This document shows positions 1 through 22,883 of a stretch of 64,000 bases of DNA, piece by piece. Source of the stretch: an uncultured Erysipelotrichaceae bacterium. GTDB lineage: Bacteria; Bacillota_I; Bacilli_A; RFN20; CAG-826. A program made the translations under genes and the position numbers. Location: contig CADCFC010000003.1 in the NCBI GenBank assembly GCA_902800645.1, positions 1,598-65,597 on the forward strand, written 5' to 3'. The notes under the pieces are model-generated. The model saw only the letters and a program-made list of their open reading frames with translations, was not told the DNA's origin and searched no databases. The stretch's first letter is position 1; every line of letters starts with the position of its first letter.

Positions 1-1693
1 CAGTAATTGTTGCAGAACCAGCAGCTACGCCAGTAACAACACCAGTTGACGAATCAACCGATGCTACATCAGCATTGCTACTACTCCATGTTAATGTCTT
101 ATTATTTGCATCAGCTGGCAAAGCTTCTGCAGTTAAAGTAATTGTTTCATTAACATTTACAGTAGAAACACTGCTAGTAATGTTAACACTTGTAACTTGT
201 TGAACAACATCTGAAACAGTAACGTTGCAACTTGCACTTTTTTCTATTCCAGTATGAGCATGATCTTCTGAATAACTTATAGTTAAATTATTGCTTCCTT
301 TAGTTAATGGTACACCTGCAGTAATTACTGCTTCTGATGTAACATCTGCGGTTGTTCCATCATCATATGTAACCGTCAAAGTAATTCCTAAATCAGAAAT
401 TGAAGGATTGTCTCCAGCATTAAATGAACCGCTAACCGCAGTTGAAGCCAATGAAGAAGGACTTTTTGAATAAGCATATCCTTCAGATATTTCTGCTTTA
501 GTGCCGTTATACATGAATGGTGATCCAAATACTGTAATTTGATTTCCATTAGCAATAATTGAATTAGCAAGTGTATCATTAAACCCAGTTTTATTAGCAT
601 CACCATATGTTTTATAACAATTCAATTTATCTGTAGCGTTTGCAGTATCACCCAAATCAAAATTGGCTGTATGTGACGTTGAGTAATATGTTTTGTTGAT
701 GATGTAACCGTGAACATAATAGTTAACCGAAGGATCATCGCTTCCAGCTCTATTAGCTATCAATAAAGCATCAGCAACAGAAAGTGGGTCTGCGCGTGTT
801 CCAGCATGTTCAACATCGACGACATGAATTGTAGAATAAGCAGGCTCATCGCAATCAGAGCAAACAGCTTTAATAACAGCATCTCCTACTGCTGTACCTG
901 TAACAACAATACTGTCTCCAGTATTTTGTGCTGGTAAAGAAACGTATTGCGATCCACTTTCAATTGTCCAAGTAACAGTTCCACTAGCGCCGTTGTTTTT
1001 GGTGGCACTTAAAGAAGCTGTCTTTGTGTTTGAACCGTAATCAATTGTCGCAGAAGTGGTAACAGAAATTGATTTCGGAGCTACTTCACTATCGTCATAA
1101 TAAAATGTGGCACTAGAAAAAGTAATATACTTGTTTGTGTTAGTCGTGTTGGCAGGCATAACAAAACCAATTTCAAAATACTTATTTGACCAATCTTTCC
1201 CAGCTGGACGATTAAATGTAACTGACGACTGCCAAGAGCCATTGCTTAAATTGCCATCAGTTGAATCTCCTGCAGAAGAACCAACTTTTAGAGTGATATC
1301 AGTCACATTAATATAATCAGAAGCGGGCTTTGCAGTTGAAATAACAACTTTAGTAATATTGCGAGTCGATACTGCGGTTGTAGATTGAATTTTTCGTACC
1401 ACACCAGCTTCTGACAAATCTGTCTTTTTTCCACCAATTTTCCATGGGGTGGCATATGAATTAGCCGTGACATTCCAAGAAACAGTTCCTTGCGTAGTGG
1501 ATGCGGTTTGGTAATATGAATTATGCGGACCAGTATTTGTTCCGGTTGCCGTCATGCCACTTAAAGTATACGCAGTTTGTTCGTCAGCTTTAACTTCGAT
1601 AGGTTCGCTAGCGCTGTTTATAGCCACACCCACTCCGACTGCCATAGCCATTCCAACGAAAGCTGTGGCGATCTTTGTAAATAATTTGTTCAT
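1..1693 (-). CDS. Surface adhesin-like protein (paralog of 35589..38411); N-terminus complete, C-terminus lies beyond window start
   Basis: Absent from the ORF track because it runs off the edge. ATG at 1693..1691 is preceded by GAAAGGAGAA. Hand translation MNKLFTKIATAFVGMAMAVGVGVAINSASEPIEVKADEQ... stays open down to codon 4..2. The signal/anchor helix is nearly identical to MNKLFTKIAGVAIGLTMAIGVGVSVG of the 940-aa ORF. The last ~45 codons read as a Big_2-type Ig repeat (ITLTAEALPADANNKTLTWSSSNADVASVDSSTGVVTGVAAGSATIT). Confidence 0.7.
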   Translation of the reverse strand, partial: MNKLFTKIATAFVGMAMAVGVGVAINSASEPIEVKADEQTAYTLSGMTATGTNTGPHNSYYQTASTTQGTVSWNVTANSYATPWKIGGKKTDLSEAGVVRKIQSTTAVSTRNITKVVISTAKPASDYINVTDITLKVGSSAGDSTDGNLSNGSWQSSVTFNRPAGKDWSNKYFEIGFVMPANTTNTNKYITFSSATFYYDDSEVAPKSISVTTSATIDYGSNTKTASLSATKNNGASGTVTWTIESGSQYVSLPAQNTGDSIVVTGTAVGDAVIKAVCSDCDEPAYSTIHVVDVEHAGTRADPLSVADALLIANRAGSDDPSVNYYVHGYIINKTYYSTSHTANFDLGDTANATDKLNCYKTYGDANKTGFNDTLANSIIANGNQITVFGSPFMYNGTKAEISEGYAYSKSPSSLASTAVSGSFNAGDNPSISDLGITLTVTYDDGTTADVTSEAVITAGVPLTKGSNNLTISYSEDHAHTGIEKSASCNVTVSDVVQQVTSVNITSSVSTVNVNETITLTAEALPADANNKTLTWSSSNADVASVDSSTGVVTGVAAGSATIT

Positions 1694-2411: not shown

Positions 2412-5400
2412 TTAAAATTTCTTCTTGCTGTGTTCCAAAAGTACTCCAATGCTATTGTTGTTTGAAATTTTATCAATAAAGTACTTCTTTTTATTTTCAA
2501 TTAAACTATCATAATTTTCAATGCAATACCTACGAGCTATTAACCTTACACAATTTTTGTTAAATTCGGTATTATTTTTATTGTCTATATAATTAATTAC
2601 GCTATCAATAAATTGGTTTTCCCTAGCAGAAAAAGACATTATCATGAATCTTTGAATATCCTTTACTGGATTAGCGTCGTCTCTTAATCTCTCACACAAT
2701 CTTTCGTTTAACATAGGATTATCTAGCGGCCTAGAACCAACATCATATATACTCAAAACGGTTGCTGTAACATACGATAAGAGCAAATCAAAAAAGCGGC
2801 TTATAAATTTTGTAGAGTATTTCTTATTATTGCTCTGTTCTCTTTGCATTTGAACATACATTTTTTCTAAATCGTCATTTGTAATTGTTATATATTTATC
2901 TACAACAATATTTGGTAGAGTCAGCGCAATTGATGTTAATTTATCTTTGATGCCTTTTGTCAATTTTGATGGAGCTGAATTCAATAAATTTGATACCACT
3001 TGCGACTTATTTAGTAAGTCGATCATTTCTTTCATTGTTTCACTTGCATCCTTTTCATAGAAGAAATCATCAGAATGTTCTAAATAATTTTCGCGTTGAA
3101 TTTGTTCTGCTTTACTGATGTCTTGCTTTATTTCGCTTATTCTATTCTCATCCAGTAGTTCAATTCTTTTTCTTTCGCTTTCAAAATATTTACTGATGGA
3201 ACTAAAATCTTTAAGTTCTAATTTAGCTCCACTAATTTTGTTGTAAAGATCGTTTGTAAAAAAATCAAGAATATCATCATAATTATAGTTATTAGAAATA
3301 TTTAGCAAAATATATGAATTTAATGACGAATAGAGTCCTCTTGAAAGAACTACTTCGATTTCTATTTTGCTGTGCTTATTGTGCAAACAATTTACTATGT
3401 ATTCACTTATAAAATAAGCAAAAATCTTTCTATTGATAAAAGAATAGCTAAAATCTTCGTTTTTCTTTAAAATATCTAAATCAATTAATTTTGAAAGATA
3501 AAGCTCAATCTTTTTTTGATCAAACGGAGGATCGTAAAGAGCAATTTCTCGATCGTAGACATCACAAAAGTCATCCTTGCTAAATGAATTATGTTTTTTC
3601 ATGTAGCAATCATATGCCATGTCACCAAGCATTCTTATGGAGTTAAATCTTCCACAATTAGCAAAACTTTTATCTTTTTCAATCAAATCTAGTTTACTAT
3701 CATATTTTGTTTTTTGATGAGACCAATTTTTATCTACGTTATGAACATCAACATCGAACAACATGCTTGTTGATAGGTCTAAAATACTTTTTGGATCAAT
3801 ACTATTCATCTTGTCCATTTTTTCGATGACTTTATCAAAAGTAGTAATAAAAGTATCTTTTTTAAAATTTTCCAAAATATCCGGTTTAATTTTTGCTGCA
3901 GTATTATAAATCAGTTGTAAAAATTCGTCCCTTTTTGCTTTATAAAGAACGTCAATCGCTAGAACTAAAACATTATCGTTTAAAGCTTCATCATTAGAGA
4001 AAAAATCACAAACGTGAGAATTGGACATTAAAATTATATTCCCAAATAACGTCGTTGAATCCATTATTCTTTTGAAATCAGCAACATCAGAATCGTCAAT
4101 AATAAGGATTCTGGATTTTTCCTCTGTGTTCCAGTACAATTGTTCGGCTGACTGATTGTTATAATTATCTTTTATAATTGAAGACATTAATAATTTAGCG
4201 CTTTTGTTGGTTGACACTTTTGTAAAATTATTCCCAGAAGTAATTAAAGGATTAAAGCCTCTACTGACGAACAAATGAAAAAGTCGATTTGCAAGCACAC
4301 TTTTGCCAGACTCATCATCACCTTTGATGATTACTATTTTCTTTTTCTTGATGGCTTCTACGAATTTGTCAAAAGTTGTTATTTTTTTCTTTTCAAAATT
4401 CAGGTATTTCTTTTCTGTTAAGTTTGGAAACACAAAAATATTAGATATATCGGTAGAGGTGTGACCAAACTTCACAAAGTTATTCTGATCTACTTGTTTC
4501 AAATTAACTCTTAGTTTATCTTTTGTTGCTTCTTTTCTTTTAAAATCTATGGCGTTAATGCCATTATCATTTATTTCTTCGTATACATAATCATTTTCAT
4601 TAAAAAGATATAGTTGATAATACATTTTATTATTATCTATATGAAACAGTGTAAAGCCGGATTGCCCATCGGAATATAATGCCGGCGCAGTAAGTTCAAT
4701 ATACCCAGCACTATTTGCGACAATAGAATCCTCATGAGTGTGTCCAGTAAAAACAACATCAATATTATTTGAAACAATTTGAGACAATTTTCCTTTTGTT
4801 TCTTTTCTTAAATAGGAAAATGGTATGTGCATAATCAAAAAGCTTAACGTTTCGTTTTCTCTCTCAATTTTCAAATGGTCAGGAGCTATATAAATATTTC
4901 CAATATTTGCGGCGTCGTCGCCTTCAGGGCTTGAATATGCTGACAATAATGAATTATTCAATGAATAGACGCTTACCTTATTATTGTCATAGGTAAAATT
5001 GAATTTTAACAAAACGTTATTTATCTGGCTTTTAGATTCGAAATTAGTATTTACGAAATCGTTATAATTATCATTTAAATACATTAATTCATTTATTTTT
5101 TCATCAAAATTGCTATCTTTGATGCTTTTAACGTATTCCGAATCAATTGTCTCTTCATTAAATTTTCTGTCATGGTTTCCTGGACAAATAGCTATTCTAA
5201 TTTTCTTTTTTATTTTTGCCTTAATTTCATTAATAAAATTTGAAAAAACTTCGTAATCTTCTTTTAAGCCACTTTGAACAGCATCTCCAGTGAATAAAAT
5301 TAAAACATTATTAGAAAAGTCATCATTATTAACAATATTTTTTATGCTATCGATTTTTTCATCAAGAAAAGTTAGCCTACGATATAAGTGTAAATCAGTA

Positions 5401-5432
5401 ATATGTAAAACTATTAATTTCATAAAAATCAC
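2412..5432 (-). CDS. Calcineurin-like metallophosphoesterase fused to a P-loop NTPase and a ~500-aa helical C-terminal region (STAND/Avs-like architecture)
   Basis: All five metallophosphoesterase motifs are present in order: HITDLH, FTGDAVQSG, CPGNHDR, LIMHIP, FTGHTHED. Walker A is IIKGDDESGKSVL (~aa 370) and Walker B is RILIIDDSDV (~aa 450); the rest is helical with no motif I recognise. The track start at 5432 is a GTG; the ATG at 5423 (MKLIVLHITDLH) is the more likely start. Confidence 0.75.
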   Translation of the reverse strand: MIFMKLIVLHITDLHLYRRLTFLDEKIDSIKNIVNNDDFSNNVLILFTGDAVQSGLKEDYEVFSNFINEIKAKIKKKIRIAICPGNHDRKFNEETIDSEYVKSIKDSNFDEKINELMYLNDNYNDFVNTNFESKSQINNVLLKFNFTYDNNKVSVYSLNNSLLSAYSSPEGDDAANIGNIYIAPDHLKIERENETLSFLIMHIPFSYLRKETKGKLSQIVSNNIDVVFTGHTHEDSIVANSAGYIELTAPALYSDGQSGFTLFHIDNNKMYYQLYLFNENDYVYEEINDNGINAIDFKRKEATKDKLRVNLKQVDQNNFVKFGHTSTDISNIFVFPNLTEKKYLNFEKKKITTFDKFVEAIKKKKIVIIKGDDESGKSVLANRLFHLFVSRGFNPLITSGNNFTKVSTNKSAKLLMSSIIKDNYNNQSAEQLYWNTEEKSRILIIDDSDVADFKRIMDSTTLFGNIILMSNSHVCDFFSNDEALNDNVLVLAIDVLYKAKRDEFLQLIYNTAAKIKPDILENFKKDTFITTFDKVIEKMDKMNSIDPKSILDLSTSMLFDVDVHNVDKNWSHQKTKYDSKLDLIEKDKSFANCGRFNSIRMLGDMAYDCYMKKHNSFSKDDFCDVYDREIALYDPPFDQKKIELYLSKLIDLDILKKNEDFSYSFINRKIFAYFISEYIVNCLHNKHSKIEIEVVLSRGLYSSLNSYILLNISNNYNYDDILDFFTNDLYNKISGAKLELKDFSSISKYFESERKRIELLDENRISEIKQDISKAEQIQRENYLEHSDDFFYEKDASETMKEMIDLLNKSQVVSNLLNSAPSKLTKGIKDKLTSIALTLPNIVVDKYITITNDDLEKMYVQMQREQSNNKKYSTKFISRFFDLLLSYVTATVLSIYDVGSRPLDNPMLNERLCERLRDDANPVKDIQRFMIMSFSARENQFIDSVINYIDNKNNTEFNKNCVRLIARRYCIENYDSLIENKKKYFIDKISNNNSIGVLLEHSKKKF

Positions 5433-5736
5433 CGCTTATTTAAAAATCTTTCATTAACATAATCAACCATTTATACATCTTTTGTCAATTCTATTGAGAT
5501 GGAATATGTATTTTTCAAAAACATAACTTTTATATGCCTGACTATCGTTTTTTTAACTGATAGTCTTAAATCTAACAATTCACTATTTTTTGACAATGAT
5601 ATGGATATATAAAAAGCTTTATTTTTCAGTTTTCGACACAAAATAGTGACGATGAATAATAAATATAACAATATTTTTATTCTCAATAATTAGTGTTATG
5701 GAAGGTCGAACATTGAATAAAATCTGGCTAAGGAAA

Positions 5737-5837
5737 CTATATAATCTCCCACTTATAGATATCTCGGCAAGTGTTTGTCTCCGCCAACTACTAACCACAT
5801 ACAATCTCTAAGACAAACACGAGGCATGTGTCGTTTT
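5737..5837. repeat. Island repeat, copy 1 (right-hand hairpin half; a degenerate left half may extend back to ~5590)
   Basis: About 85% identical by eye to 17342..17442: ctataWaatctcc...ttatagatatYYcggcaaGTGTTTGTCT-N30-AGACAAACACgag. The 10-bp stem is 5771..5780 / 5811..5820. Confidence 0.7.
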
Positions 5838-5898: not shown

Positions 5899-6882
5899 AT
5901 GGCAGATAAATTATTCTTAACAATCGATGAACAATTGAACCATTTATCATTAGATAAAGAGATTTCTTGTGGTGAAGCGCATAAAGAATCATTACTGAGA
6001 ATTGGTTATTTTAATTTGGTTAATGGTTATAAAACACCATTTACATCTAGTAAGGATGCTCAGGGTAATCATATATACGCTAAAGGGACAACATTAGATG
6101 AGCTGATTAATCTTAAAAACTTTGATGATGACTTGAGATATATTTTGATTAGAACATTAACCAAATGTGAAGAAGAAATAAAAACAATCGCTAGTTATAT
6201 ATTAGAAAAATATAAGCCAGCTAAAATAACTTGGAGAAGTACAAACGCATATAATAAGGCGCTAGATAAATCTAATATTGATAGAATTAATAAGCTTATA
6301 AGCAGAATGCAAAAGCAATTAAACGAAAGAGAAGATTTGGAATATGTAAAGTTTTATAAATCGTCTCATAAAGGAAAAATCCCTATGTGGGTAATTACAA
6401 AAGCAATATATTTTGGAACATTCATTGATTTAATAGAATTATCTAAACCAATAGTCGCAGAATCGCTTTGTGAATTATATAATATTAAAGACATAAACAA
6501 TGATAACGATATTAAATTATTAATTGGTTCACTACACTGGATAAGAATTTTTAGAAACGCCTGTGCACATAATGAAAGAATATATTGCTTAAAAGGTGCA
6601 GGTAGAATTTTTGATATAGAAATAAGAAAATTTGGAAACAGATATATGAGAATCAAAGAAAGAAAACTATTTGATCTTCTTGTCTATCTCCGTTACTACA
6701 TGCAGAAGAAAGAATATCAACAATTAATTAAAAACATCAAAGATAAATTAATAAAACTCCAGTCATCTATATCAGTGTACGCTTTTGATAACATAAGAGG
6801 TGGGATGGGTATTAAAAATTTAGAAGACTTAGATATATTATCTAAAGATGGATTTGATAACGGTTACATGAAATTATATTAA
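5899..6882 (+). CDS. Abi_2 family (AbiD/AbiF-like) abortive-infection protein
   Basis: Family landmarks: RIGYFNLVNGYK (the YYRLSxY-like segment), NLKNFDDDLRYIL, and the hallmark SLHWIRIFRNACAHNERIY (RNxxAHxxR motif). Confidence 0.8.
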   Translation: MADKLFLTIDEQLNHLSLDKEISCGEAHKESLLRIGYFNLVNGYKTPFTSSKDAQGNHIYAKGTTLDELINLKNFDDDLRYILIRTLTKCEEEIKTIASYILEKYKPAKITWRSTNAYNKALDKSNIDRINKLISRMQKQLNEREDLEYVKFYKSSHKGKIPMWVITKAIYFGTFIDLIELSKPIVAESLCELYNIKDINNDNDIKLLIGSLHWIRIFRNACAHNERIYCLKGAGRIFDIEIRKFGNRYMRIKERKLFDLLVYLRYYMQKKEYQQLIKNIKDKLIKLQSSISVYAFDNIRGGMGIKNLEDLDILSKDGFDNGYMKLY

Positions 6883-7537: not shown

Positions 7538-8785
7538 TTAAAATGAAAATGGATTTTTGATTGCACCCTTAGTAACAAACAACAATTCAAATTGTACAAT
7601 ATTGCCAGTCACCTCGAAGATATCATTAACAAAAAATAAACTTAGAAATATGCGATTGTTTTTCTCGTTTGTATAAATCAATTCCTTAACAGCAATGTTC
7701 AAGGTTTCTTTTTTAGTGTTTTCTATAACATAAAATGATAAGGTTGGGTCGTCGTTCATTTGTTCAATTCTTTTTATGGAGTTAATATCAATAATTATTT
7801 CGTTGTTCTTCAATATAGGCCTATTTCTAACAATGCTCATGAGGAATTGGTTGATTGAATTGTGGTTTCTAACAATATATTCTGGCTTTCTCAAAAGCCT
7901 ACCCAGCGCGCGTCTGATTCTTCTTTTATCGTACCAGTAGTTTAAATTTTTTCCATTAATCAAATTTAGTGACTCTTTAATTAAATCCTCACACACTTCT
8001 ATTCCAATCCTATCGTTCATTTCGAATTTAATAGATTTTTCAATCATCTCATAGACTGGTTCCAATTCAATATTGTCACTTGTATAAGATTTAATCTCAA
8101 AATCATAATCAATCCTTTCAATGCCGTCGTTGAATGAATAGTAACTTTTTTTCAATAAGGCATATACTGTTTTTGCAAAAGAATATACATCACTTGCATA
8201 ATATTTGTCGGTGTCTATGATTGTTCTGTCCATGAGTTCTGGTGGAGTAAAAGTATATGAACCCATCCTTGAATGGTTTGTTTCTCCACCCTCTTCACTA
8301 ATCAGTCCAAAATCACACAAAATCAAAACGTACCCATCACCATTATCTTTCTTCTCAAATAAAATATTTGTTGGTTTAATATCGCGATGAGCAAATCCTT
8401 GCGAGTGTATATATTTGATTGCGTCAATTAAGTCTAAACAGTATTGAAGAATAGTCTTATTCGTTGGATTTGAAGCATAAAAATCATTGATCGTTAAATA
8501 TTTTTTCATAACAAAAAATTCAGGACCATTCTTATAAGAGTCAATAAGTTTAGGAATATGAATGTCTTTATTTTGATGTTTCTTTAAAAAATCTATTTCT
8601 TTGTTAAATCTCTCTAATCTGATTGCTCTATCGGTTCTAATTTCGGCTACATTAAAAACCTTCGCGACAATCTCGTTGTTACATGCAACAGATCTAATAA
8701 CGCCATTCCCGCCTTTGGGGTCGTTTTCATTTTTTACAATTTTATATGATTGAATGTATCCGTTTAATATTTCTGAATTATTCAT
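7538..8785 (-). CDS. Hanks-type Ser/Thr protein kinase with an unassigned ~150-aa C-terminal domain
   Basis: G-loop KGGNGVIRSV, catalytic Lys in EIVAKVF, HRDIKPTNILF, CDFGL, TFTPPEL. The start is set at ATG 8785..8783, which overlaps the TAA (8780..8778) of the upstream ORF (ATGAATAA). The track's longer start at 8842 lies inside the upstream gene. Confidence 0.8.
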   Translation of the reverse strand: MNNSEILNGYIQSYKIVKNENDPKGGNGVIRSVACNNEIVAKVFNVAEIRTDRAIRLERFNKEIDFLKKHQNKDIHIPKLIDSYKNGPEFFVMKKYLTINDFYASNPTNKTILQYCLDLIDAIKYIHSQGFAHRDIKPTNILFEKKDNGDGYVLILCDFGLISEEGGETNHSRMGSYTFTPPELMDRTIIDTDKYYASDVYSFAKTVYALLKKSYYSFNDGIERIDYDFEIKSYTSDNIELEPVYEMIEKSIKFEMNDRIGIEVCEDLIKESLNLINGKNLNYWYDKRRIRRALGRLLRKPEYIVRNHNSINQFLMSIVRNRPILKNNEIIIDINSIKRIEQMNDDPTLSFYVIENTKKETLNIAVKELIYTNEKNNRIFLSLFFVNDIFEVTGNIVQFELLFVTKGAIKNPFSF

Positions 8786-11700
8786 TTTCTGCAAAACGTC
8801 TTTCTGATTCTGCATCATGATAAAAACAATCCGCGACATCATTTAAAATCAAGGCGCTTTTTGGAAAGCCTGTTTGTTTTAGCAAGCGTGACTCGCTCTT
8901 ATAATAATTGGCTTTAACAATAAGATCCGACCCATCGCCAATAGTCCTGACTCCAACACCATTCATTATCGAGGTACAATAACTCGATTTTAAATAATTA
9001 TAAGCCTTGTCATTTTGAATGTTTTCAATGAAATCGGCAACCTCTTTAGGAATTAGTAACCCCTCTTCTTTTTTTGAGTAAGCAAAAAGTTTCCCAAGGG
9101 ATGAATAAAATAGATAATCTTTTTCATCGAAGTCTGTTTTATAAATCAATTCACGATACTGATTAACCCATTGTTTAAATAAATTGCCATCAAAAACACC
9201 ATGATAATATCCAGGACAAAATTTTAAATCAAAATATAATAATCCAAACAGTGTTGCTTTTCTTTTAGAATCCTCTTCCTTCTTGATATAAACACTTTCA
9301 ATAAATTCAAAGTATGTCTCAGGGTGTTTACCTAAATGATTGTATAAACAAATCGGTTCGCACTCATGCGTTTTAATAGCCATGATTTCCAGAGAAGCAA
9401 TTTGAAGTTCAATTGTCTCGTTGTTTGTAGAGGAAAATCTTTCATGAAGGATGTCTAACAAAAGTGGAAGATACATTAAGTGACTAGATGAAATTGCACC
9501 TGGCTCTGCTTTTGTCAAGCATTCAAGTACAACATCGCCCAAATCGCTCCCTTTATAATTGTGAGCAAAAAAGTAAAGTGCTTCCAAAATTGGGCTTTTT
9601 AAAGAATTATCTCTTTTAAAAGCATCGTTTAAGCTTTCAATAGCAAATGTAATCGATTTAGGGTTGGAGCAATCAATATTCACATAACTTTTAAAATTTG
9701 ACCAATACAAATCTTGAACGCATCGCGGGAGGACCTGATACATACTAGCAAATTCATCATCATTAAGATTAAAAGGAACAACATACAAATACTCTAAAAG
9801 AGCTGATTCATTATTGGTGGCTTGTACTTGTTTTAAAATTGAATAGTAATTTTTCTTATCGTTGTAAAACAAATCTCTACCTAGATAAGAGAACAAAGCG
9901 CTAACATTAGGTGTCTTAGCTAATAAAACTTCAACAAATTGATTAAGACTTCTATTATTAACAGTCATTTCGAAATCTTTTGCAAAATAATAAAATCTGT
10001 CAAAAACATTCACTTTACCAGCATTTTCGTTAAAATGTTGATACAAATAATCTATCGAGAGTCTGTCTTTTTTAAATTTGGCATACACCGTTTCTAAGAA
10101 TTGTTCATTATTTTTTTCTTGAAGCGCATATGAATAATTATTGCTATCATAAACGACAGGATTCGGGTTTTTAATTTCAAAGGATGTAAAATAATCTATA
10201 TATTCGATTTCAGGATTATCCAATTTAATTTTTGGAATTAACAACTCAAAGTCCTTGATAACTTCTTCAGGCGCAGCCCACCCTGCATTAGCAAATTCTC
10301 TATTCTTATGTATAAATGATTTAATTCTATTTATAACAATCATTTTATCGTAATCATTAGCTTCCTTACATACAGACATTATCTTTTTAATAACCATTTC
10401 TCTTGCTTTATTGCCGAAATATACAAAAGAGTGTTTGTCTATAATCTCAGCAATCTGAGTGCAATTATTTGCATGCTCCAAAACAATATCATTGTAGAAA
10501 CTATACCTTTCAGAAATAACTTTGTTTGTTAGTTGTTGCTCTGGCATTTTAAATGTCAAATAGACTGGATGATTAAACGGCATCGCCGTATCTCCACCAC
10601 CCGAATATAAAAGATCTATGAACAAATTAAACGCCGCATTTGAATCAATTTTAAAAAGATGCCTGCAAAGTTCAGTTCTTTCTTCTTCTGTAGCAGGGGT
10701 TGCTTGAAACCACGCCAAGAAAAAAACATGTAAAGTAGACTTAGGCGAATTTGAAATCTGGTAGGAGAGATTAAGTTGATATAAAGAAAAGAGTGCTTCA
10801 ACGGCTTTTTTTCTTTCGCTATCGAAAAAGAGGATCTTTTCCAAACACCACAGAACATTTGTGTACCAATTTTTTCCAAATATAAAATCAGGTTTGGAAG
10901 ATTTGTTTAAAAATAGTTTGCATAGCCCTGACTTGTTTTTTATATCAGATGATATTTTGTCTATAGTTAAAGAAGCATTAATTTCAACAATCTTATCTAA
11001 ATAATCAGAAAGATACCTATAATGTTGATCTGTTTGATTCTCATCGATCCATTTAAAAAAAGTGTCAACAAGATTGGCTGTTTGATTTTTAAACTTTCCT
11101 TTTTCGTTCAAAAAGATTAACGAAATAAAAATGCTCTCGATAAGAGAAGGAGAATAAGAACTTTCGCTGTTTTTAAAGACTAAAGGACTATCTCCGTATT
11201 TATCCGGAAGTGTACATAAAACATTTTTTGCCAATTCAAAAAACTTATCTGCAATAGAAGATGAAATATCAGAATAAAATGATTCGAATGAGCCTTCATA
11301 ATCAAGAACGATGAGATTTGTTTGGTGAAAGTCTACTATTTCCTTTGCGTATGGAGTTTCCGATAAAGATGGCGGTTGTATCTCCTCAATATAATCACTA
11401 ATTCCAAGGCCACTTATCTTTTCGATAAAATCCGCATCAAGAGGATTATTAACTTGGAACTTTCTTATTAGTAAAGAAGTTGATAAAACACGGGACTTAA
11501 TTGACGACTTAATTCTCGCTTCAAATGTATCGGTTTCTTTGCATAGTATTCTGTAGAGATTTGGAAAAGTATTTTTTGATCTCCTCATCAAAGATGAAAT
11601 ATCATCACTCTTAAAATCACTCTTCTTCAATGCTTCTCTTGTTGATTTTGCAAGTCTAGGCCTCAAAGTGATTTGAACACCAGATACTTTCCATTTAGAG

Positions 11701-12482
11701 ACAATATGAATGTTCATATATTGTCTAAATGCAGGGATAGATTCATCGGTAAAAAATTCATTAATCAGAATAGAATTATTAGGCAAAGAATAATGCTGAA
11801 CATTTAAATAATCTGCTCGGCTATTAAAAATGAAAACTCTTGAATTATAATCATCAGGAAAAATCTTTTTAAGCTCGCATAACGTTGCATAAAGGGTTTC
11901 TAATTGATAAGTCCCTTTGATAAGCAGTGGATTATTAGGACCTCTAAGCGATTCACTTAATTCACCGGAAAAATGTGCATCCTGAAAATCAAATAAATCT
12001 AGAGTAAGTGGCTTATTTTTGTTGTCCCTTGAAGAACAAGAAAGATAGTTATTTAATTCATCAATGGTAAAGTAATTTAGATTATAATAATAGGACGATT
12101 TTAATTCTTCTAGTTCCTTATCAAGTTTTTGCTTATCTAGTTTTAGTTCTTCAATGCTGGAATGCATTAAATCCTGTTGAATCAAAACATATAATAATGG
12201 TTGACTAGCTTTAATTTTATCAAGCAATGAGGATAAAAAGGAATTAATATCACTGTCCAAATATCCCTTATTGATAAGTAATTCCTTTATTGCCTTCACC
12301 ACTTTAACAAGGCTTTGTCTATAAGTATATTTAGCGACATCTAAGACGGCATCATAATCTATGTTCTGATTTTCTTTTTGTGCAAGAATATAATAGCCTT
12401 CCCAAGACGCCTTGCTAGCAAACAATTCAATAGCTTTGTATAAAACTTTTATAATAGAGGGCGCCGCATCAATAAATTTCAT
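8778..12482 (-). CDS. 1234-aa predicted all-helical protein of unknown function, translationally coupled to the kinase
   Basis: Long uninterrupted ORF with a coiled-coil-like segment SSIEELKLDKQKLDKELEELK. I found no intact Walker A, TM or nuclease motif. Residues ~185-225 resemble a decayed P-loop core (PLLIKGTYQLETLYATL ... SRVFIFNS). Its stop overlaps the kinase start. Confidence 0.7.
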   Translation of the reverse strand: MKFIDAAPSIIKVLYKAIELFASKASWEGYYILAQKENQNIDYDAVLDVAKYTYRQSLVKVVKAIKELLINKGYLDSDINSFLSSLLDKIKASQPLLYVLIQQDLMHSSIEELKLDKQKLDKELEELKSSYYYNLNYFTIDELNNYLSCSSRDNKNKPLTLDLFDFQDAHFSGELSESLRGPNNPLLIKGTYQLETLYATLCELKKIFPDDYNSRVFIFNSRADYLNVQHYSLPNNSILINEFFTDESIPAFRQYMNIHIVSKWKVSGVQITLRPRLAKSTREALKKSDFKSDDISSLMRRSKNTFPNLYRILCKETDTFEARIKSSIKSRVLSTSLLIRKFQVNNPLDADFIEKISGLGISDYIEEIQPPSLSETPYAKEIVDFHQTNLIVLDYEGSFESFYSDISSSIADKFFELAKNVLCTLPDKYGDSPLVFKNSESSYSPSLIESIFISLIFLNEKGKFKNQTANLVDTFFKWIDENQTDQHYRYLSDYLDKIVEINASLTIDKISSDIKNKSGLCKLFLNKSSKPDFIFGKNWYTNVLWCLEKILFFDSERKKAVEALFSLYQLNLSYQISNSPKSTLHVFFLAWFQATPATEEERTELCRHLFKIDSNAAFNLFIDLLYSGGGDTAMPFNHPVYLTFKMPEQQLTNKVISERYSFYNDIVLEHANNCTQIAEIIDKHSFVYFGNKAREMVIKKIMSVCKEANDYDKMIVINRIKSFIHKNREFANAGWAAPEEVIKDFELLIPKIKLDNPEIEYIDYFTSFEIKNPNPVVYDSNNYSYALQEKNNEQFLETVYAKFKKDRLSIDYLYQHFNENAGKVNVFDRFYYFAKDFEMTVNNRSLNQFVEVLLAKTPNVSALFSYLGRDLFYNDKKNYYSILKQVQATNNESALLEYLYVVPFNLNDDEFASMYQVLPRCVQDLYWSNFKSYVNIDCSNPKSITFAIESLNDAFKRDNSLKSPILEALYFFAHNYKGSDLGDVVLECLTKAEPGAISSSHLMYLPLLLDILHERFSSTNNETIELQIASLEIMAIKTHECEPICLYNHLGKHPETYFEFIESVYIKKEEDSKRKATLFGLLYFDLKFCPGYYHGVFDGNLFKQWVNQYRELIYKTDFDEKDYLFYSSLGKLFAYSKKEEGLLIPKEVADFIENIQNDKAYNYLKSSYCTSIMNGVGVRTIGDGSDLIVKANYYKSESRLLKQTGFPKSALILNDVADCFYHDAESERRFAENE

Positions 12483-13212: not shown

Positions 13213-14061
13213 TCATTTCTTGTAATGTTCGCATAGCATTAATAGGCTTGGATAAGAAACATTACCTTCTTTTTTATAAATATCATAATAGAACAACTTA
13301 ACAACTTCTATAATGATATCTTTGAATTGAGCGTCCACCAATTCTCTGTCTAATAAATTGTTCATATATTGAATGGCCAAGCTCTCAAAGAAATTCAAAA
13401 CCTTTATTCTTCTTTCATGATAAATCCTTAACACTTGGGAACAACCAATCGTGTTTTTGTCTAATTTATATCCTTTTTCACCATTATAAACTTTGCTGAT
13501 GTGTTCAGAAAAACTATTACTCACAACATTAGGTTCAATAGTTAAAAACAAAATAGTCTTTTTAATTAAAAGGTTTTGATATTCATCTTCGTTTTCAAAT
13601 TCAGATTCAAACTTTTTAATTGCTTCTTCTTGAATCTCTAATGATGGCTCAACTTTTAATCTCGCCTTTTTAAGCGAACCCCTAACTTCAACTTGAACAT
13701 TTTTTGTGAAGCGATAAAGAGGGGTTGTACTGTAGTTAAATTCTTTGATTGCTTCAATAACTGCACCAAGCTTAGTTTCTTTCTCCTTCGCTCTTCGAGA
13801 ACGTTCATTAAATAAATACGTTCCAACCGCATTTAATAAAATACCGGCAGAAAATAGAGATCCAGCAATACCAATTGCAATCGTATGTAGTTCCTTTGTG
13901 TTAAAGTTCTTATTTTCTAGGAAAAAGAAAATCAATAAAACAACAATTGCAATAACACCAATAACGAGAAATGCTCCAACAAACACATAGAAAACAATTG
14001 TTGGAATCTTAATCTCGCGTTTATTTGTATCATAATTCTTTTTGTTATCTTTCATATACAT
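13213..14061 (-). CDS. Two-TM membrane protein with a cytoplasmic C-terminal domain (DUF4760-like by eye)
   Basis: Two hydrophobic helices: IPTIVFYVFVGAFLVIGVIAIVVLLIFFFL and TIAIGIAGSLFSAGILLNAVGTYLF. The C-terminal LNFFESLAIQYMNNLLDRELVDAQF...YPSLLMLCEHY resembles my memory of DUF4760-type proteins. It lies 43 nt downstream of the AbiH-like gene. Confidence 0.6.
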   Translation of the reverse strand: MYMKDNKKNYDTNKREIKIPTIVFYVFVGAFLVIGVIAIVVLLIFFFLENKNFNTKELHTIAIGIAGSLFSAGILLNAVGTYLFNERSRRAKEKETKLGAVIEAIKEFNYSTTPLYRFTKNVQVEVRGSLKKARLKVEPSLEIQEEAIKKFESEFENEDEYQNLLIKKTILFLTIEPNVVSNSFSEHISKVYNGEKGYKLDKNTIGCSQVLRIYHERRIKVLNFFESLAIQYMNNLLDRELVDAQFKDIIIEVVKLFYYDIYKKEGNVSYPSLLMLCEHYKK

Positions 14062-14104: not shown

Positions 14105-15271
14105 TTAAATTTTTCTAATTTGTAGCCTGTTTTCCAATTGTAATCTGCTGATAATTGTAGTGACTTTTTCTTCACTTCCTGATTTTTTAGCGTAGTCGGT
14201 CAGTAATTTATAGACAGAAGAAACAAAAGCTGCTCTAATATTGGCGTTTTCTTCTTCGGTTTCTTTGTATTCTGTATAGCAAAATATAAGCGATATACCA
14301 CTATTGTAAATGTCATAATAATCAAACAACGAATGAAAATAAGAATAGTCCTGTGGGCCAAGAGAATGACCATAAATTTTGATTTTATTAATATTTTCTT
14401 TTTTAGGCAATTCATACGGCTTGTCGGATAGATTCATTTTTTGCCATGCTTTGCTCATTTTAATGCTCAAAGTTTCGTTGTCAGAAACATCACCTGAATC
14501 AAACCCAATAATAATTTCATTTTCTAAACTTCCGTGTATATTGTAATAATTTCTTTTGAATTCATGACTTTCCGAATCAACAAACCATTTCAATGGATTT
14601 GTGTAATTGAATGAAATAATTGAAGTTGGCTCAGAATAAAAGTTAATTAATTTGCTTAGCAGTTTTTTACAATTGTTGGTGTATTCAGTATCACTGACAA
14701 CACAATTACTAATATACTCCTTAAAATCGGCTTCAAACTTTAATAGTTCTAAATACAAATATGAGTATATATTAAAACCAGATACTTCTATTTTTATTTT
14801 ACGGAAATGTTTTTTGATTGAAACTAATTGACTACGTTCCCCAACAATGTATCCTGACATTCTTGTAGAAAACAAGGAATTCAAATAATCTAAGTAATTT
14901 GAGCAATTGATAGGGAGGTTTATATTCATCCATTTATCATCTTTTTTATTAAATGTAACAATCTTTTTAACGAAACTTTCAATATCCATCCAACGCGGAT
15001 TACTAATAGGAATTTTTTCAACAATTTGATTAAACTCGCTATCATAATAAGTTTCGTCGTAAAAAGCAAAATAAAACAACAAATACCAAATATTATCGCA
15101 CACAACGTTTAAATAAGTGTCAGCAGCGGATTTAATAGTTGAAATTTTTGTTTTAAAAAAATCATTAAAACTACTTTTAAGGCCACAGTTTAAATCAAAA
15201 CCATTGCCGATAACCAATAATGTTCCAATTATTTCATTTTCGCTTGGGCTAATTCTATTTTTTGTATTCAT
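14105..15271 (-). CDS. AbiH-like abortive-infection protein
   Basis: The N-terminal LLVIGNGFDLNCGLKSSFNDFF matches the AbiH signature (IIGNGFDLxHGLxTxYxDF). The C-terminal IKIYGHSLGPQDYSYFHSLF matches the second AbiH block (GHSLxxxDxxYF). Confidence 0.75.
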   Translation of the reverse strand: MNTKNRISPSENEIIGTLLVIGNGFDLNCGLKSSFNDFFKTKISTIKSAADTYLNVVCDNIWYLLFYFAFYDETYYDSEFNQIVEKIPISNPRWMDIESFVKKIVTFNKKDDKWMNINLPINCSNYLDYLNSLFSTRMSGYIVGERSQLVSIKKHFRKIKIEVSGFNIYSYLYLELLKFEADFKEYISNCVVSDTEYTNNCKKLLSKLINFYSEPTSIISFNYTNPLKWFVDSESHEFKRNYYNIHGSLENEIIIGFDSGDVSDNETLSIKMSKAWQKMNLSDKPYELPKKENINKIKIYGHSLGPQDYSYFHSLFDYYDIYNSGISLIFCYTEYKETEEENANIRAAFVSSVYKLLTDYAKKSGSEEKVTTIISRLQLENRLQIRKI

Positions 15272-15790: not shown

Positions 15791-15947
15791 AATAGATTCA
15801 TAATTGATAAGAATCAGCCATATAAATATAACATCGCCATCATCATTCTTGGTGAACTATTTAATGAAGGAATAATAGATATTTTTGATATAGCGGAATC
15901 TCTTATTAAATTAACAAAACTATATAATCTCCCAGTAATAGATATTT
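15791..15947. repeat. Island repeat, copy 2 (left-hand 157 nt only)
   Basis: Colinear without indels with 17213..17369 (about 85% identity by eye): aatagattcataattgataaRaatcagccatat...gatatttttgatatag...ctcttattaaatt... It diverges just before the hairpin half. Confidence 0.7.
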
Positions 15948-16208: not shown

Positions 16209-17132
16209 CTAATCCTTTGACAAAATAAATGATTTGTTTGTTTTCTTTACTATAAAATTATTTGTCTTCTCACAGCAAACAAATCCGTCACTCCCAAAAG
16301 AAATTAGTTGAAATTTCATTTCTAGTTTTGGCTGTACCATGAAAAAATTTTGAAATGCAATAATTATATTAGGAATATTATCAACAAGAAATTTTTCCCA
16401 TTTAGCTGCCTCCTGACGATAAATGATTGATTTCAATGTTGAATCAATAGGGTTGCCGTTTGACATTGAACCACCACCAGCGTTAGTTAAAACCAAGCCA
16501 TTATCAAGAACGGCAAAACCATTGATATTACATTCTCTCAGGGCCTTTATGTCATTATTAGAAAGTTCTTTAGAAGCAACGCCATTAACAATAAATGGGC
16601 TTAATAAGTTTGGCCAATTCCGATATATTATTTCCAAATAATCCTTGTCCGTAAAGCAATGAATATCATTATGATCTTTTACGGTAATGAAATATACAAA
16701 ATAATCTGTAACCCATGCGATAATCAAATGGTTGCTTCTTTGAACTCTGCCATCAGTCCTATATCTCCTGGACAAATGAAAATGGAATAAATTCCAATCA
16801 TTCAGGATACCATCGTTGTAAGTAACGTCATCATACTTTTCAGTTAAAAAGGGTTTTAAATTGTCTCCGTTAATTATTTTTATTTCAAGTTCACTCAATG
16901 CCAGCTCATATCCAGACGGACAGACAAATGAATCAGACTTTTTAACTTGTCTAGGCATTGGTTTTATTGTTTTCTTCATCATCTTAAACATTTCAATAGG
17001 TGCATTTCGATTTACTGTTGGTGAAAACCCATTATTAACAATATTGCTTTTAGCAATTTTTTCACAATCTTTTTCGAAATCAATTTCAGCAATCCATAAA
17101 TATTTTTCAGGAATTTTGGCTTTGTAAATCAT
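16209..17132 (-). CDS. Hypothetical 307-aa protein (orphan cassette between two repeat copies)
   Basis: Clean ORF with no motif I can assign. It contains WNLFHFHLSRRYRTDGRVQRSNHLIIAWV. It is flanked by repeat copy 3 upstream and copy 2 downstream. Confidence 0.55.
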   Translation of the reverse strand: MIYKAKIPEKYLWIAEIDFEKDCEKIAKSNIVNNGFSPTVNRNAPIEMFKMMKKTIKPMPRQVKKSDSFVCPSGYELALSELEIKIINGDNLKPFLTEKYDDVTYNDGILNDWNLFHFHLSRRYRTDGRVQRSNHLIIAWVTDYFVYFITVKDHNDIHCFTDKDYLEIIYRNWPNLLSPFIVNGVASKELSNNDIKALRECNINGFAVLDNGLVLTNAGGGSMSNGNPIDSTLKSIIYRQEAAKWEKFLVDNIPNIIIAFQNFFMVQPKLEMKFQLISFGSDGFVCCEKTNNFIVKKTNKSFILSKD

Positions 17133-17212: not shown

Positions 17213-17442
17213 AATAGATTCATAATTGATAAAAATCAGCCATATGGATATAACATCGCCATCATTATTTTTGGTAAACTACGTAATGAAGTAATGATAG
17301 ATATTTTTGATATAGTAAAAGCTCTTATTAAATTTAGGATACTATAAAATCTCCAAGTTATAGATATTCCGGCAAGTGTTTGTCTACGCCAACTACTAGC
17401 CATGAACAACCTCTAGGACAAACACGAGCCATATATCATTTT
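17213..17442. repeat. Island repeat, copy 3 (full length, ~230 nt)
   Basis: The left half matches copy 2 and the right half matches copy 1. The stem is GTGTTTGTC (17376..17384) / GACAAACAC (17417..17425) with a ~32-nt loop. Confidence 0.7.
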
Positions 17443-20003: not shown

Positions 20004-21191
20004 CTATTTCTTCATTGACTCCAATGTGGAAATTAATTTATTCATAAAAATAGACTTACTATATTTGTTGAAGTAAACATTTTTAGAATGTTCACCAATC
20101 AATTGTAATTCTTTTGGGTTAAGATTCTTTATAAGATTCGCAAGCGATTCACTATCGCCAGATGGGCAAACAAATCCAACGTTATTATTCTTTATAAAAT
20201 TAGCACAACTCCCGTTGATAGCACCAATAATCGGCTTTCCAACCGCCATATAAGATTGAACTTTTCCTGGTATGGTCATGTTAGCATAAGGTTTATCTTC
20301 TAATGTAACAAGCATTGCATCAGCAATCTTATATAATCCTGGCATATCTTCTAATGGTCTTTGACCATAGAAAACAGCATTGTCTGTTTTTAATTCAGAA
20401 GCAAGTTTCTTAACATTATCTAATTCACTACCACTACCGACTATATGGAATTTAAAGTTTGGATCATCTTTTAATAACGCTGCTGCTCTTATAATAGTAT
20501 CTACTGATTGGGCTTTGCCAATATTCCCAGCAAACATTAGATCGATAACACCATTATCTTCGTTTTCAAAATCTGACTCTTCAAAAACAGTGTCAGCATA
20601 CTGAGGTAAATATCCAATATCTAATTCATTACAATTAGGTAATAATTTTATATAATCAATATGTTCTTTAGTACTAACCAAAATTTTGTCACACTTAGAA
20701 TATATATTAGATGATACTTTCTTATAGTGATTATAAATAAGCGAATCTTTTTTAATGCCACCCGCTAATAAGGACTCTGGCCATAAATCCATTTCATACA
20801 TCACTACTTTTTTATTATATTTCTTAGCATATTTAAGACCAGGATTAGCGCTCATAATAGGCGATAATTCATTAATTAAAACAACATCAAAATCTTTATC
20901 TAATTTATTAATTAACTTATTAGCATAGTGAGGAAAAGACCAATAGTTAAGAAATCTAAACAATATTCCATGTCTTCTCCCTATTTCTTTAGCGCGAATT
21001 ATCTTCACACCATTATGCTCTTGTACTCTATTTTTTCCGTGTTTGTAGTCATCAAAAATATATCCTTTTGGATAATTTGGGAGGCCACATAAAACAGTTA
21101 CTTGATGTCCTAAAGAAACTAAAGATTCCGCTATATCAGTAATACGGAAGTTTTCGGGCCAAAAGCGTTGCGAAATAATTAATATTTTCAT
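20004..21191 (-). CDS. GT-B (GT4, WbuB/WcaI-like) glycosyltransferase
   Basis: MKILIISQRFWPENFRITDIAESLVSLGHQVTVLCGLPNYPKG is a typical WbuB-like N-terminus. ATG 21191..21189 overlaps the upstream TGA (an ATGA junction); the track start at 21203 is an upstream in-frame alternative. Confidence 0.75.
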   Translation of the reverse strand: MKILIISQRFWPENFRITDIAESLVSLGHQVTVLCGLPNYPKGYIFDDYKHGKNRVQEHNGVKIIRAKEIGRRHGILFRFLNYWSFPHYANKLINKLDKDFDVVLINELSPIMSANPGLKYAKKYNKKVVMYEMDLWPESLLAGGIKKDSLIYNHYKKVSSNIYSKCDKILVSTKEHIDYIKLLPNCNELDIGYLPQYADTVFEESDFENEDNGVIDLMFAGNIGKAQSVDTIIRAAALLKDDPNFKFHIVGSGSELDNVKKLASELKTDNAVFYGQRPLEDMPGLYKIADAMLVTLEDKPYANMTIPGKVQSYMAVGKPIIGAINGSCANFIKNNNVGFVCPSGDSESLANLIKNLNPKELQLIGEHSKNVYFNKYSKSIFMNKLISTLESMKK

Positions 21192-22399: not shown

Positions 22400-22883
22400 A
22401 TTCTTTGATTTCTTTTTGAAACGAACTGCCTACTAATGAATTAGGCTTAATATTTTTGTTTACAAAGCAACACGCCGCTACAACAGAAGAGTGTCCAATG
22501 ACTATATCTCCCAGCAATGTTGCTCTTGAACAAATCCAACAGCCATCTTCAATTACAATTGTAAGTTGATGACCAGCACCAGCCCTACGACTAGAATTTC
22601 CTATTTCGTGAGTTCCAGTTAATAAAACAACATGCGGGGCAACATCAACATTATTACCAATTTCAACGATACCATTTCCTTCGATTGAAAAGTCTCTTCC
22701 TATCCATGTTCCAGTCTTAACATAAAAGGAATTGATTTTTCCAAAAAAAATAGGTCCAACTATTTTAACATTCTTTTCTATTTTTACGTTTCTAATTGAA
22801 TTGAGCAAAAATCTTTTAAGTCTAAAGAATCTTGTTTTCGATAAAAAGTGATTTATAACAAATAAAACAAAGTTTCTCCACAT
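22389..22883 (-). CDS. Hexapeptide-repeat (LbH) sugar O-acetyltransferase, WcaF-like
   Basis: Hexapeptide-type repeats: IGNNVDVAPHVVLLTGTHE...IVIEDGCWICSRATLLGDIVIGHSSVVAACCFV. Confidence 0.75.
   Translation of the reverse strand: MWRNFVLFVINHFLSKTRFFRLKRFLLNSIRNVKIEKNVKIVGPIFFGKINSFYVKTGTWIGRDFSIEGNGIVEIGNNVDVAPHVVLLTGTHEIGNSSRRAGAGHQLTIVIEDGCWICSRATLLGDIVIGHSSVVAACCFVNKNIKPNSLVGSSFQKEIKEYDE

Follow-up and report, generated by a model that had tools for sequence, protein, structure and literature searches.

The 64,000-nucleotide stretch of DNA analyzed here, called the window below, belongs to contig CADCFC010000003.1 of an uncultured bacterium and is chromosomal DNA of a member of the class Bacilli. 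Near its left end lies one gene on the minus strand, whose product joins an N-terminal metallophosphoesterase head, a central nucleoside triphosphatase (NTPase) of the STAND class and an all-helical C-terminal domain. The gene very probably encodes an anti-phage STAND protein of the superfamily of DS-8, a defense protein of E. coli. It is a new, divergent member of a known design, of which one member has been proven.

In the list of open reading frames (ORFs), the gene appears as a long frame at 2412..5432 on the minus strand, with 1006 amino acids (aa) counted from a GTG codon. This GTG, at 5432, falls within a Shine-Dalgarno-like GGTGA, and an ATG sits 5 nucleotides (nt) beyond at 5423. The database protein P0001 has 1003 aa, is 100% identical to the window protein and begins with MKLIVLH, as do all homologs. 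Because the GTG lies inside GGTGA and the N-termini of P0001 and the homologs agree, the start is assigned to the ATG at 5423, which gives a protein of 1003 aa. An earlier reading of this DNA, made from the letters and the ORF translations only (the sequence-only reading), had reported the frame 2412-5432; the intact gene is there on the minus strand, and its start had been placed 9 nt too far upstream. Residue numbers below are those of the 1003-aa protein (the earlier numbering of the 1006-aa ORF is higher by 3). The identical gene was found on 7-8 metagenome contigs, and its content of guanine plus cytosine (GC) is 28%, compared with 34% in the core region at 40-64 kb. A scan for promoters and terminators gave no excess over shuffled sequence (30 versus 31.4 promoters, 2 versus 1.3 terminators).

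Domain organization of the protein

The motifs of the head are DLH (residues 10-12), GD (46-47), GNHD (82-85), H199 and GHTHED (227-232), and the metal ligands are D10, H12, D47, N83, H199, H228 and H230, together with H84 and D85. Every phosphoesterase and Walker motif quoted in the sequence-only reading could be located in the window protein. Conservation was followed in 73 representatives of the family that are 15-37% identical to the window protein. In the head, D10, H12, G46, D47, G82, N83, H84, D85, H199, H228 and H230 are invariant in 73 of 73 relatives, so that the phosphoesterase residues, whose conservation the earlier reading had proposed to check, are kept throughout with all the ligands. 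K374, N156, S161, G227 and F332 are conserved in at least 90%, and N156, which stands within a family-specific motif LNNxxxS, reaches 97%. The Pfam model Metallophos matches the window protein above its gathering score (Table 1). The head thus contains a complete and conserved binuclear metallophosphoesterase site.

An AlphaFold2 (AF2) model of the head (residues 1-340, from a 53-sequence alignment) had a predicted local distance difference test score (pLDDT) of 90.3 and a predicted template modeling score (pTM) of 0.88. When this model was compared with the PDB by Foldseek, the best match was B. subtilis YydB (E=1.4e-17, template modeling (TM) score 0.65 on the query, 399 columns); this is a structural match only, and no sequence-level match of YydB to the head was detected. 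The best solved enzyme was Rv0805, a cyclic nucleoside monophosphate (cNMP) phosphodiesterase (E=7e-11, TM 0.69 to the target). It was followed, in Foldseek order, by purple acid phosphatases, the glycerophosphodiesterase GpdQ, Vps29, Lmo2642, an ADPRibase-like zebrafish enzyme, the 5'-nucleotidase UshA and acid sphingomyelinase. Mre11/SbcD was not among the top 50 Foldseek matches of either the head-only or the full-length model. In a sequence-profile search of the head, Lmo2642 (E=3.5e-8, residues 26-277) and GpdQ took the lead, and the matches to Mre11/SbcD profiles were weak (E=5e-4 and E=3e-4) and confined to the first ~90-105 residues. This is the region of motifs I-III, which are common to all metallophosphoesterases. 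Because the fold matches point to small-molecule enzymes and the similarity to Mre11/SbcD is limited to motifs I-III, the head appears to group with small-molecule phosphodiesterases and pyrophosphatases, not with DNA-end nucleases; the Mre11/SbcD class, one of the two assignments offered for it by the earlier reading, is disfavored by the fold comparison. Sequence searches of the PDB with the head, and with the NTPase plus the tail, returned no usable match, and a viral structure library returned only generic metallophosphatase, AAA and NLR-like matches.

Among named families, the head was matched best by NF053862, 'DS9_1 anti-phage phosphoesterase', over residues 7-167 (161 residues). Other NCBIfam phosphoesterase models fitted worse (YaeI, 1.3e-3; YfcE, 2.3e-3; CpdA, 5.9e-3), and DS9_1 was likewise preferred over other phosphoesterase models in all nine relatives tested. 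The nearest named relative of the head, as judged by these profiles, appears to be the Calcineurin-CE domain of DS-9/PUA-Cal-HAD. DS-9A is a protein of 549 aa with a phosphatase domain at 200-533 and a HAD partner, of which the mutants D207A and N292A were described. PUA-Cal of E. coli ECOR28 has a PUA domain at 6-179 and a Calcineurin-CE domain at 202-465, with the ligands D207/H209, D255, H420 and H462/H464. Since the two share the same architecture and the same position of D207, DS-9A and PUA-Cal are the same protein type.

The Calcineurin-CE family was reportedly defined in a Nucleic Acids Research (NAR) study of 2023. The name covers phosphoesterases that act as effectors in conflicts, with nucleotide pools as their predicted target (10.64898/2026.01.15.699771). 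According to the same source, Calcineurin-CE converts (deoxy)nucleoside diphosphates ((d)NDP) to the monophosphates ((d)NMP) once HAD has taken the gamma-phosphate, and without HAD it splits NAD+ to nicotinamide mononucleotide (NMN) and AMP; with the PUA-Cal-HAD system as a whole, the pools of deoxynucleoside triphosphates (dNTPs) collapse and infection is aborted (10.64898/2026.01.15.699771). N367 of PUA-Cal, a conserved asparagine 75 residues after N292, has been implicated in substrate recognition (10.64898/2026.01.15.699771). In the window protein, N156 follows N83 by 73 residues, a comparison made by spacing only. The offsets of the DS9_1 hidden Markov model (HMM) match are consistent with N156 and N367 at one position.

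Between the head and the NTPase runs a linker with a near-invariant FVFP about 35 residues ahead of the P-loop, in which P333 is invariant, F332 is kept in 99% and F330 and V331 in 82% (alignment A3). It may contact adenine, as does the pre-P-loop segment of other STAND/AAA+ proteins. In the P-loop domain, G373 and D443 are invariant and K374 is conserved in 96%. Pfam nSTAND3 scored 31.4 bits on the isolated NTPase domain (gathering score 27.2) and 24.9 bits in the whole protein; the homolog P0004 scored 28.9 bits. The window protein was not matched by Pfam NACHT (PF05729), and the relative P0201 was matched weakly (26.5 bits, cutoff 26.7). Behind the P-loop domain, R498 (in KAKRDE) and F662, in the beta-hairpin/helix segment YSFINRKIFAYF, are both invariant. 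Pfam nSTAND_NTPase4 matches relatives at the equivalent position, about 612-670, and the window protein at the same place, weakly (E=1.2).

The full-length AF2 model had a mean pLDDT of 80.6. Compared with the PDB by Foldseek, it matched NLRC4, NLRP3, NOD2 and NAIP at E~1e-8 over 560-615 columns, which far exceeds the P-loop domain alone. Next came Avs4 (E=3.9e-5) and a STAND-TPR protein, and only then ORC/Cdc6 and RuvB. No match to KAP NTPases appeared in the Pfam, PADLOC, NCBIfam or Foldseek listings of the window protein. On the strength of the profile and model comparisons, the central domain is therefore classed as STAND/NACHT-like, not as KAP or AAA. This was the distinction on which the sequence-only reading had asked for a domain search, and the NLR and Avs4 matches, together with nSTAND3 above threshold on the isolated domain, bear out its choice of STAND. 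In a PDB profile search, RecA multi-copy chains came out on top (E=6e-14). These were discarded as an artefact of tandem-fusion targets, because each 38-residue P-loop stretch had individually E ~4-6 and the scores were merely summed.

For the sequence behind the NTPase, the earlier reading had spoken of ~500 aa of helical sequence without a motif. Its helical, non-repeat nature was upheld, with no Pfam family and no tandem repeats detected in the C-terminal half, but this part is structured and includes the STAND modules at ~493-690. Mean pairwise identity among the 73 relatives was 26% in the head, 25% in the NTPase, 22-23% in the helical and winged-helix modules and 20% in the C-terminal third. 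The C-terminal third contains 3% gaps and is collinear throughout the family, and the tail aligns profile-to-profile with DS-8 equivalogs as far as residue 976. Sensors of Avs and NLR proteins are typically swapped or hypervariable. The near-flat conservation of the tail would fit a sensor for a conserved target and not a swapped or fast-evolving one, although this is suggestive only.

Relationship to DS-8 and other defense families

DS-8 is a single E. coli protein (WP_032203427.1, 1014 aa) with metallophosphatase and NACHT domains that protects against phage, and its mutants D52A, N84A and K375A each lose defense (DefensePredictor, Science 2026, PMC13092281). The NCBIfam model NF053861, 'DS8_antiphage', matched the window protein with 236 bits (E=6.4e-70), the best stretch being residues 10-472 against positions 1-482 of 994 in the model. 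In PADLOC the best hit was PDC-S60 (PDLC05051), with E=1.3e-21, residues 8-474 against positions 3-502 of 1027. No Avs family model was matched in PADLOC, where the window protein returned PDC-S60, PDC-S10 and mad8 only.

An exhaustive profile search retrieved 11,301 cluster representatives (clusters at 50% identity) with E<=1e-3, of which 1,486 reached E<=1e-30. Of the best 150, nearly all were about 1,000 aa long and matched end to end, and with the Metallophos match this puts the signal well clear of chance. In a second search, made with the profile of the 73 sequences, DS-8 equivalogs were found: P0184 (1068 bits on the DS-8 model), P0187 (925 bits), P0175 (833 bits) and P0181 (831 bits), of which P0187 is named 'STAND family AAA ATPase' at NCBI. 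No retrieved protein carries D52, N84 and K375 at exactly those positions, and blastn of the DNA of the best DS-8 equivalog against complete E. coli genomes gave no match. Proteins passing the NCBIfam DS-8 cutoff were therefore used as stand-ins for DS-8 itself. Five were taken for the profile comparison, with 831-1068 bits on the DS-8 model except one at 748.

When the window clade was aligned to these five by hhalign, the probability was 100% and E=4.3e-65 over 940 columns (4-976 against 1-988). In average-linkage clustering of 217 full-length members, the window protein fell into a stable clade with 23 representatives. Apart from it stood the DS-8 clade, whose roughly 25 representatives are 16-20% identical to the window protein, and a third clade of 131. 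Given the end-to-end profile alignment, the score below the equivalog cutoff and the separate clade, the window protein is best described as a full-length but deeply diverged homolog of DS-8, and not as an equivalog. The family is patchy and sporadic: a set of 185,579 species genomes yielded 27 loci, in Bacilli, Collinsella, Dyella, Fibrobacter and others. By tblastn, no match was obtained in 50,697 phage records, and plasmids gave five distant matches to the N-terminal half (C. botulinum, Paenisporosarcina, Jeotgalibaca), which were uninformative.

The tripartite order of effector, NTPase and sensor, on which the sequence-only reading had based its comparison with antiviral STAND proteins of the Avs/bNACHT type, is supported by the fold, the PDC-S60 and DS8 matches, the genomic contexts and the conserved residues; the protein belongs to none of the named Avs families, as no Avs model was matched in PADLOC. 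The PADLOC run it had suggested returned a candidate single-gene system, PDC-S60. Its impression that a phosphoesterase head is unusual is outdated. In 2021, Kaur et al. listed STAND NTPases that have a calcineurin-like phosphoesterase as their head (PMC8195603), and calcineurin-like heads appear among the effector types of bNACHT proteins (10.1101/2022.07.19.500537). The architecture is therefore already known: it was predicted in 2021-2023, is represented in PADLOC as PDC-S60 and was validated as DS-8 in 2025-2026.

Genomic neighborhood

The gene is the leftmost of a defense cluster spanning 2.4-19.8 kb, with a Big_2 surface-protein gene to its left, and thus sits at the edge of the island as had been noted (Table 1). 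Its divergent neighbor is an AbiD gene, and AbiH, PD-T4-7 and a Ser/Thr kinase gene follow.

Table 1. Features of the phosphoesterase-STAND gene, its surroundings and homolog loci (window coordinates unless a locus is named)
Feature	Position	Strand	Basis or remark
Whole gene, 1003 aa plus stop; single-gene phosphoesterase-STAND protein	2412..5423	-	ORF, P0001, start context
Metallophosphoesterase head, residues 1-295, Calcineurin-CE-like	4539..5423	-	Pfam Metallophos E=1.9e-15; NF053862 DS9_1 E=2.7e-10
Linker, residues 296-345, with near-invariant FVFP (330-333)	4389..4538; FVFP 4425-4436	-	conservation
P-loop nucleotide-binding domain, residues 346-492	3948..4388	-	nSTAND3, Foldseek, conservation
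Walker A GDDESGKS, residues 368-375	4299-4322	-	
Walker B ILIIDDSD, residues 439-446	4086-4109	-	
Helical and winged-helix modules of the STAND core, residues 493-690	3354..3947	-	AF2 secondary structure, NLR alignments
C-terminal all-helical domain, residues 691-1003, presumed sensor	2415..3353	-	AF2, profile alignments
GGTGA, 5 nt ahead of the ATG	5429-5433	-	probable translation signal
Promoter-like TTGACA-18-GATTAT	5459-5488	-	plausible candidate only
Repeat copy between the gene and the divergent AbiD gene	5731-5837	+	
AbiD/Abi_2, divergent neighbor	5899-6882	+	
Ser/Thr kinase resembling mad6, MkoA and PD-T4-6	7538-8842	-	415 aa in locus L001
1234-aa protein, no family, overlapping the kinase gene start	8778-12482	-	no match in Pfam, PADLOC, NCBIfam
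ORF of 282 aa without Pfam/PADLOC family	13213-14061	-	
AbiH	14105-15271	-	
PD-T4-7	16209-17132	-	
ORF of 751 aa without Pfam/PADLOC family	17554-19809	-	
Complete surface-polysaccharide locus	20004-35051		glycosyltransferases, flippase, pyruvyl transferase, Bac_transf, Polysacc_synt_2
Big_2 (bacterial Ig-like) surface-protein gene, running off the window start	1-1693	-	1037 aa in L001
Second Big_2 surface-protein gene	26215-29055	-	
Listeria-Bacteroides-repeat surface protein, 940 aa	35589-38411		
Four tRNA genes, Leu-TAG, Thr-TGT, Val-CAC, Ile-GAT	39550-39971	-	
rpoA, one of the housekeeping genes on the right-hand side	62518-63483		preA and an iron hydrogenase gene likewise there
Polysaccharide genes at homolog locus L006	13212-23007		
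Polysaccharide genes at homolog locus L036	4122-7788		
Polysaccharide genes at homolog locus L038	1671-2897, 6414-11077		

Homologs were found in similar company at five loci, as the sequence-only reading had anticipated for a defense gene. P0004 has as neighbors a reverse transcriptase, a Hachiman-like pair of HamA and helicase, a deaminase, a pair of KAP and adenosine deaminase, and SIR2. P0005 is accompanied by AAA_15/AAA_21 pairs and a DUF1016 gene, and P0002 lies near ThsA_Macro and ThsB_TIR (Thoeris). Near P0006 are a Pycsar-type cyclase with PycTM, AbiH, a 991-aa reverse transcriptase and a RES gene, and the DS-8 equivalog P0181 stands beside a 1723-aa YjiV-type helicase and a Schlafen-like ATPase. 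No family of neighboring genes is common to the window locus, L004, L006, L036, L038, L039 and L042. The absence of a conserved neighbor fits a single-gene system, and to the extent that context can tell, the gene is the single gene it had been taken for.

Of the five window-clade loci whose flanks could be used, four have the gene inside or directly beside polysaccharide-biosynthesis genes that are interleaved with defense genes; in L038 it is flanked by the genes of a dTDP-sugar isomerase on one side and an epimerase on the other. Such placement suggests that receptor variation and immunity are combined in one hypervariable region. As a separate observation, the Big_2 genes of the window flank the variable region or lie within it. 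The tRNA cluster is just past the right end of the low-GC region and may mark the boundary of the variable region. Farther to the right, the housekeeping genes, rpoA, preA and that of the iron hydrogenase among them, fall into 90%-identity clusters whose named members are metagenome-assembled genomes labeled 'Bacilli bacterium'; the assignment of the window to this class follows from them.

Two further observations concern the neighbors themselves. The genes of the 1234-aa protein and the kinase (7538-12482) resemble an operon of two genes and may form a kinase-based system that has not been described before. The 282-aa and 751-aa ORFs, placed amid AbiH, PD-T4-7 and the kinase pair, are candidate unknown defense genes.

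The earlier reading had also placed a first repeat copy upstream of the gene, and the segment 5731-5837 indeed recurs at 17336-17442 with 84% identity. A second pair, 15791-15946 and 17213-17368, is 87% identical. A 26-nt core, CTATAWAATCTCCMASTWATAGATAT, is found at 5737, 15920 and 17342, against a chance expectation of none. A 10-bp (base pair) stem (GTGTTTGTCT...AGACAAACAC) is kept in two copies, of which only one folds better than shuffled sequence does (z = -3.5 versus -0.95). The repeat is probably not part of the mechanism of the protein. It could be a shared operator or promoter, or the remnant of a cassette junction.

Proposed mechanism, alternatives and known systems

Taken together, the above results make it likely that the gene encodes a single-protein STAND switch of the DS-8/PDC-S60 superfamily, in a clade of its own; its head may be a nucleotide or NAD+ hydrolase. 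At rest, the ATPase core of P-loop, helical domain and winged helix would keep the protein an inactive monomer, as in STAND proteins generally. The C-terminal helical domain would detect an infection cue, and ATP-dependent oligomerization through the NTPase would then gather the N-terminal heads and switch them on, in keeping with the need of DS-8 for its Walker A lysine. By its ligand set and modeled fold, the head would be a binuclear metallophosphoesterase of the Calcineurin-CE type, and by analogy with PUA-Cal/DS-9A it may cleave a phosphodiester or phosphoanhydride bond of a nucleotide-type small molecule. The most likely outcome would be that NAD+ and/or nucleoside di- and triphosphates are depleted, phage replication stops and the infection is abortive. 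Such depletion is proposed because the nearest characterized head, that of PUA-Cal/DS-9A, cleaves NAD+ and (d)NDP; as the output of the window protein it is a tentative suggestion, which we stop short of calling probable.

Several points weigh against this interpretation, some touching the membership and others the chemistry. First, defense is established for DS-8 itself, whose equivalogs are only 16-20% identical to the window protein, and this distance tempers the transfer of its function. The 236 bits of the window protein stand against a DS-8 equivalog cutoff of 790, and pairwise BLASTP with P0184 aligns residues 3-448 only (23% identity, E=5e-25). The C-terminal domain is unusually evenly conserved for a sensor of phage proteins. 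Secondly, the suggested substrate derives from the 161-residue match to the DS-9A HMM and from motif spacing, and similarity of metallophosphoesterase folds is in any case a poor guide to substrate. PUA-Cal needs its HAD partner for dNTP depletion, and no HAD gene lies nearby. Among solved enzymes, the nearest in fold is the cNMP phosphodiesterase Rv0805, and the authors of the DS-8 study prefer cyclic-nucleotide cleavage, by analogy with SMPDL3A (PMC13092281).

This last view leads to the alternative that the same sensor and switch drive a head that breaks down a signal molecule, a cyclic nucleotide or oligonucleotide (cNMP, cGAMP-like or 2',3'-cNMP), with no bulk depletion of metabolites. 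DS-8 was reported to be homologous to SMPDL3A and SMPDL3B, its predicted structure matching theirs (PMC13092281), and the bNACHT study files calcineurin-like heads under 'nucleotide-signal-generating/degrading enzymes' (10.1101/2022.07.19.500537). Among our own matches, Rv0805, a class III cNMP phosphodiesterase, and Lmo2642 are the best solved enzymes, and acid sphingomyelinase, of the SMPDL3A family, is also present. However, the Foldseek E-values of cNMP phosphodiesterases, acid phosphatases and nucleotidases lie within 1-3 orders of magnitude, which makes their ranking weak evidence, and the nearest HMM relative, DS-9A/PUA-Cal, acts on NAD+ and NDPs. Moreover, no cyclase or other signal-producing gene is conserved beside family members at the loci examined, and destruction of a signal would be an odd output for a single-gene system that must itself stop the phage. 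We therefore consider signal degradation unlikely.

Rather improbable, too, is a functional separation of the window clade from DS-8, in which the tail would respond to a conserved by-product of infection, either a small molecule or derived from the host, not to a variable phage protein, and the head alone would act as a NAD+/nucleotide pyrophosphatase. If true, it would provide a metabolite-depleting enzyme gated by a STAND switch, a chemistry not yet shown for any NLR-like protein, and the recurrent placement in polysaccharide loci would mean that receptor variation and intracellular immunity are selected together within a single hypervariable region.

It seems quite improbable that the head is an Mre11/SbcD-type nuclease which degrades phage and/or host DNA or RNA upon assembly of the STAND core. 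Nuclease heads are the commonest effectors of STAND and Avs proteins, and this general expectation is joined by the weak SbcD/Mre11 profile matches in the first ~90-105 residues and by the relative P0191, which weakly matches TIGR00619 sbcd (27 bits, cutoff 77.65). Yet those profile matches span only motifs I-III, which every metallophosphoesterase has, and Mre11/SbcD stays outside the top 50 structural matches with both models. The head has no capping domain, no SbcC/Rad50-type partner was seen at the loci examined, and the ATPase is of the STAND type, not SMC/ABC. A separate candidate identity, the housekeeping SbcCD/Mre11-Rad50 complex, was rejected on fold, ATPase class, absent partner and genomic context. 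Finally, a housekeeping or regulatory phosphoesterase-ATPase fusion that lies in the variable region by chance and is not immune is extremely improbable, for although the gene adjoins a surface-polysaccharide locus, as do three homologs, and the experimental support for defense comes from DS-8, outside the window clade, the distribution is patchy, the GC is low, the immediate neighbors are AbiD, AbiH, PD-T4-7 and a kinase, homologs in unrelated genomes are surrounded by defense genes, and the full-length homolog DS-8 was validated in defense (PMC13092281).

What the head hydrolyses and what the tail senses are questions for the whole family, not for this locus alone, and the superfamily is large, with at least 1,486 clusters (50% identity) at E<=1e-30. 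The link to Calcineurin-CE, that is, to hydrolysis of NAD+ and NDP, is a concrete and testable alternative to the cyclic-nucleotide idea for DS-8. Beyond this link, the window gene is an extra data point and brings no new principle.

Among known systems, Avs/bNACHT proteins share with the window protein the order of effector, NTPase and sensor, and its model resembles Avs4 and animal NLRs; the similarity to Avs4 is that of the generic STAND fold. The C-terminal domain of the window protein differs from theirs, being without a TPR or repeat array and showing conservation nearly as even as in the other domains. YydB, the top structural match of the head, comes from an integrative model of YydD-YydB (PDB 9a6c chain B); it is a separate protein of 481 aa that pairs with YydD, whereas the window head is fused to its NTPase. 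The yydBCD operon of B. subtilis was horizontally acquired and is silenced by Rok. As an observation apart, YydB/YydD may embody the same effector logic divided over several genes.

The head of DS-9/PUA-Cal has the same seven metal ligands; its N367 may correspond to N156 of the window protein, to judge by their similar spacing from the GNH asparagine, and in both cases the head is the effector of a defense system switched on by assembly, as is proposed here. The two differ in that the sensor and switch are a fused STAND NTPase here and a PUA-like domain there, in that a HAD partner gene is found there and none nearby here, and in that the similarity extends over 161 residues only. PDC-S60 is of the same length class and N-terminal architecture, but only the first half of its model is matched.

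The closest likeness in overall design is to DS-8, which is also the product of a single gene, of about 1000 aa, with phosphoesterase, NACHT-like STAND NTPase and helical C-terminus in this order; its D52, N84 and K375 are nearly co-positioned with D47, N83 and K374 of the window protein (GD, GNH and Walker A). In contrast, the winged-helix signature nSTAND_NTPase4 is seen in DS-8 equivalogs and is not significant in the window protein, of which the NF053861 model matches only the N-terminal half, and the host of DS-8 is a proteobacterium while the window gene comes from an uncultured member of the Bacilli. A design of phosphoesterase and STAND switch for which E. coli has provided the one validation thus reaches a deeply diverged clade in uncultured gut Bacilli.

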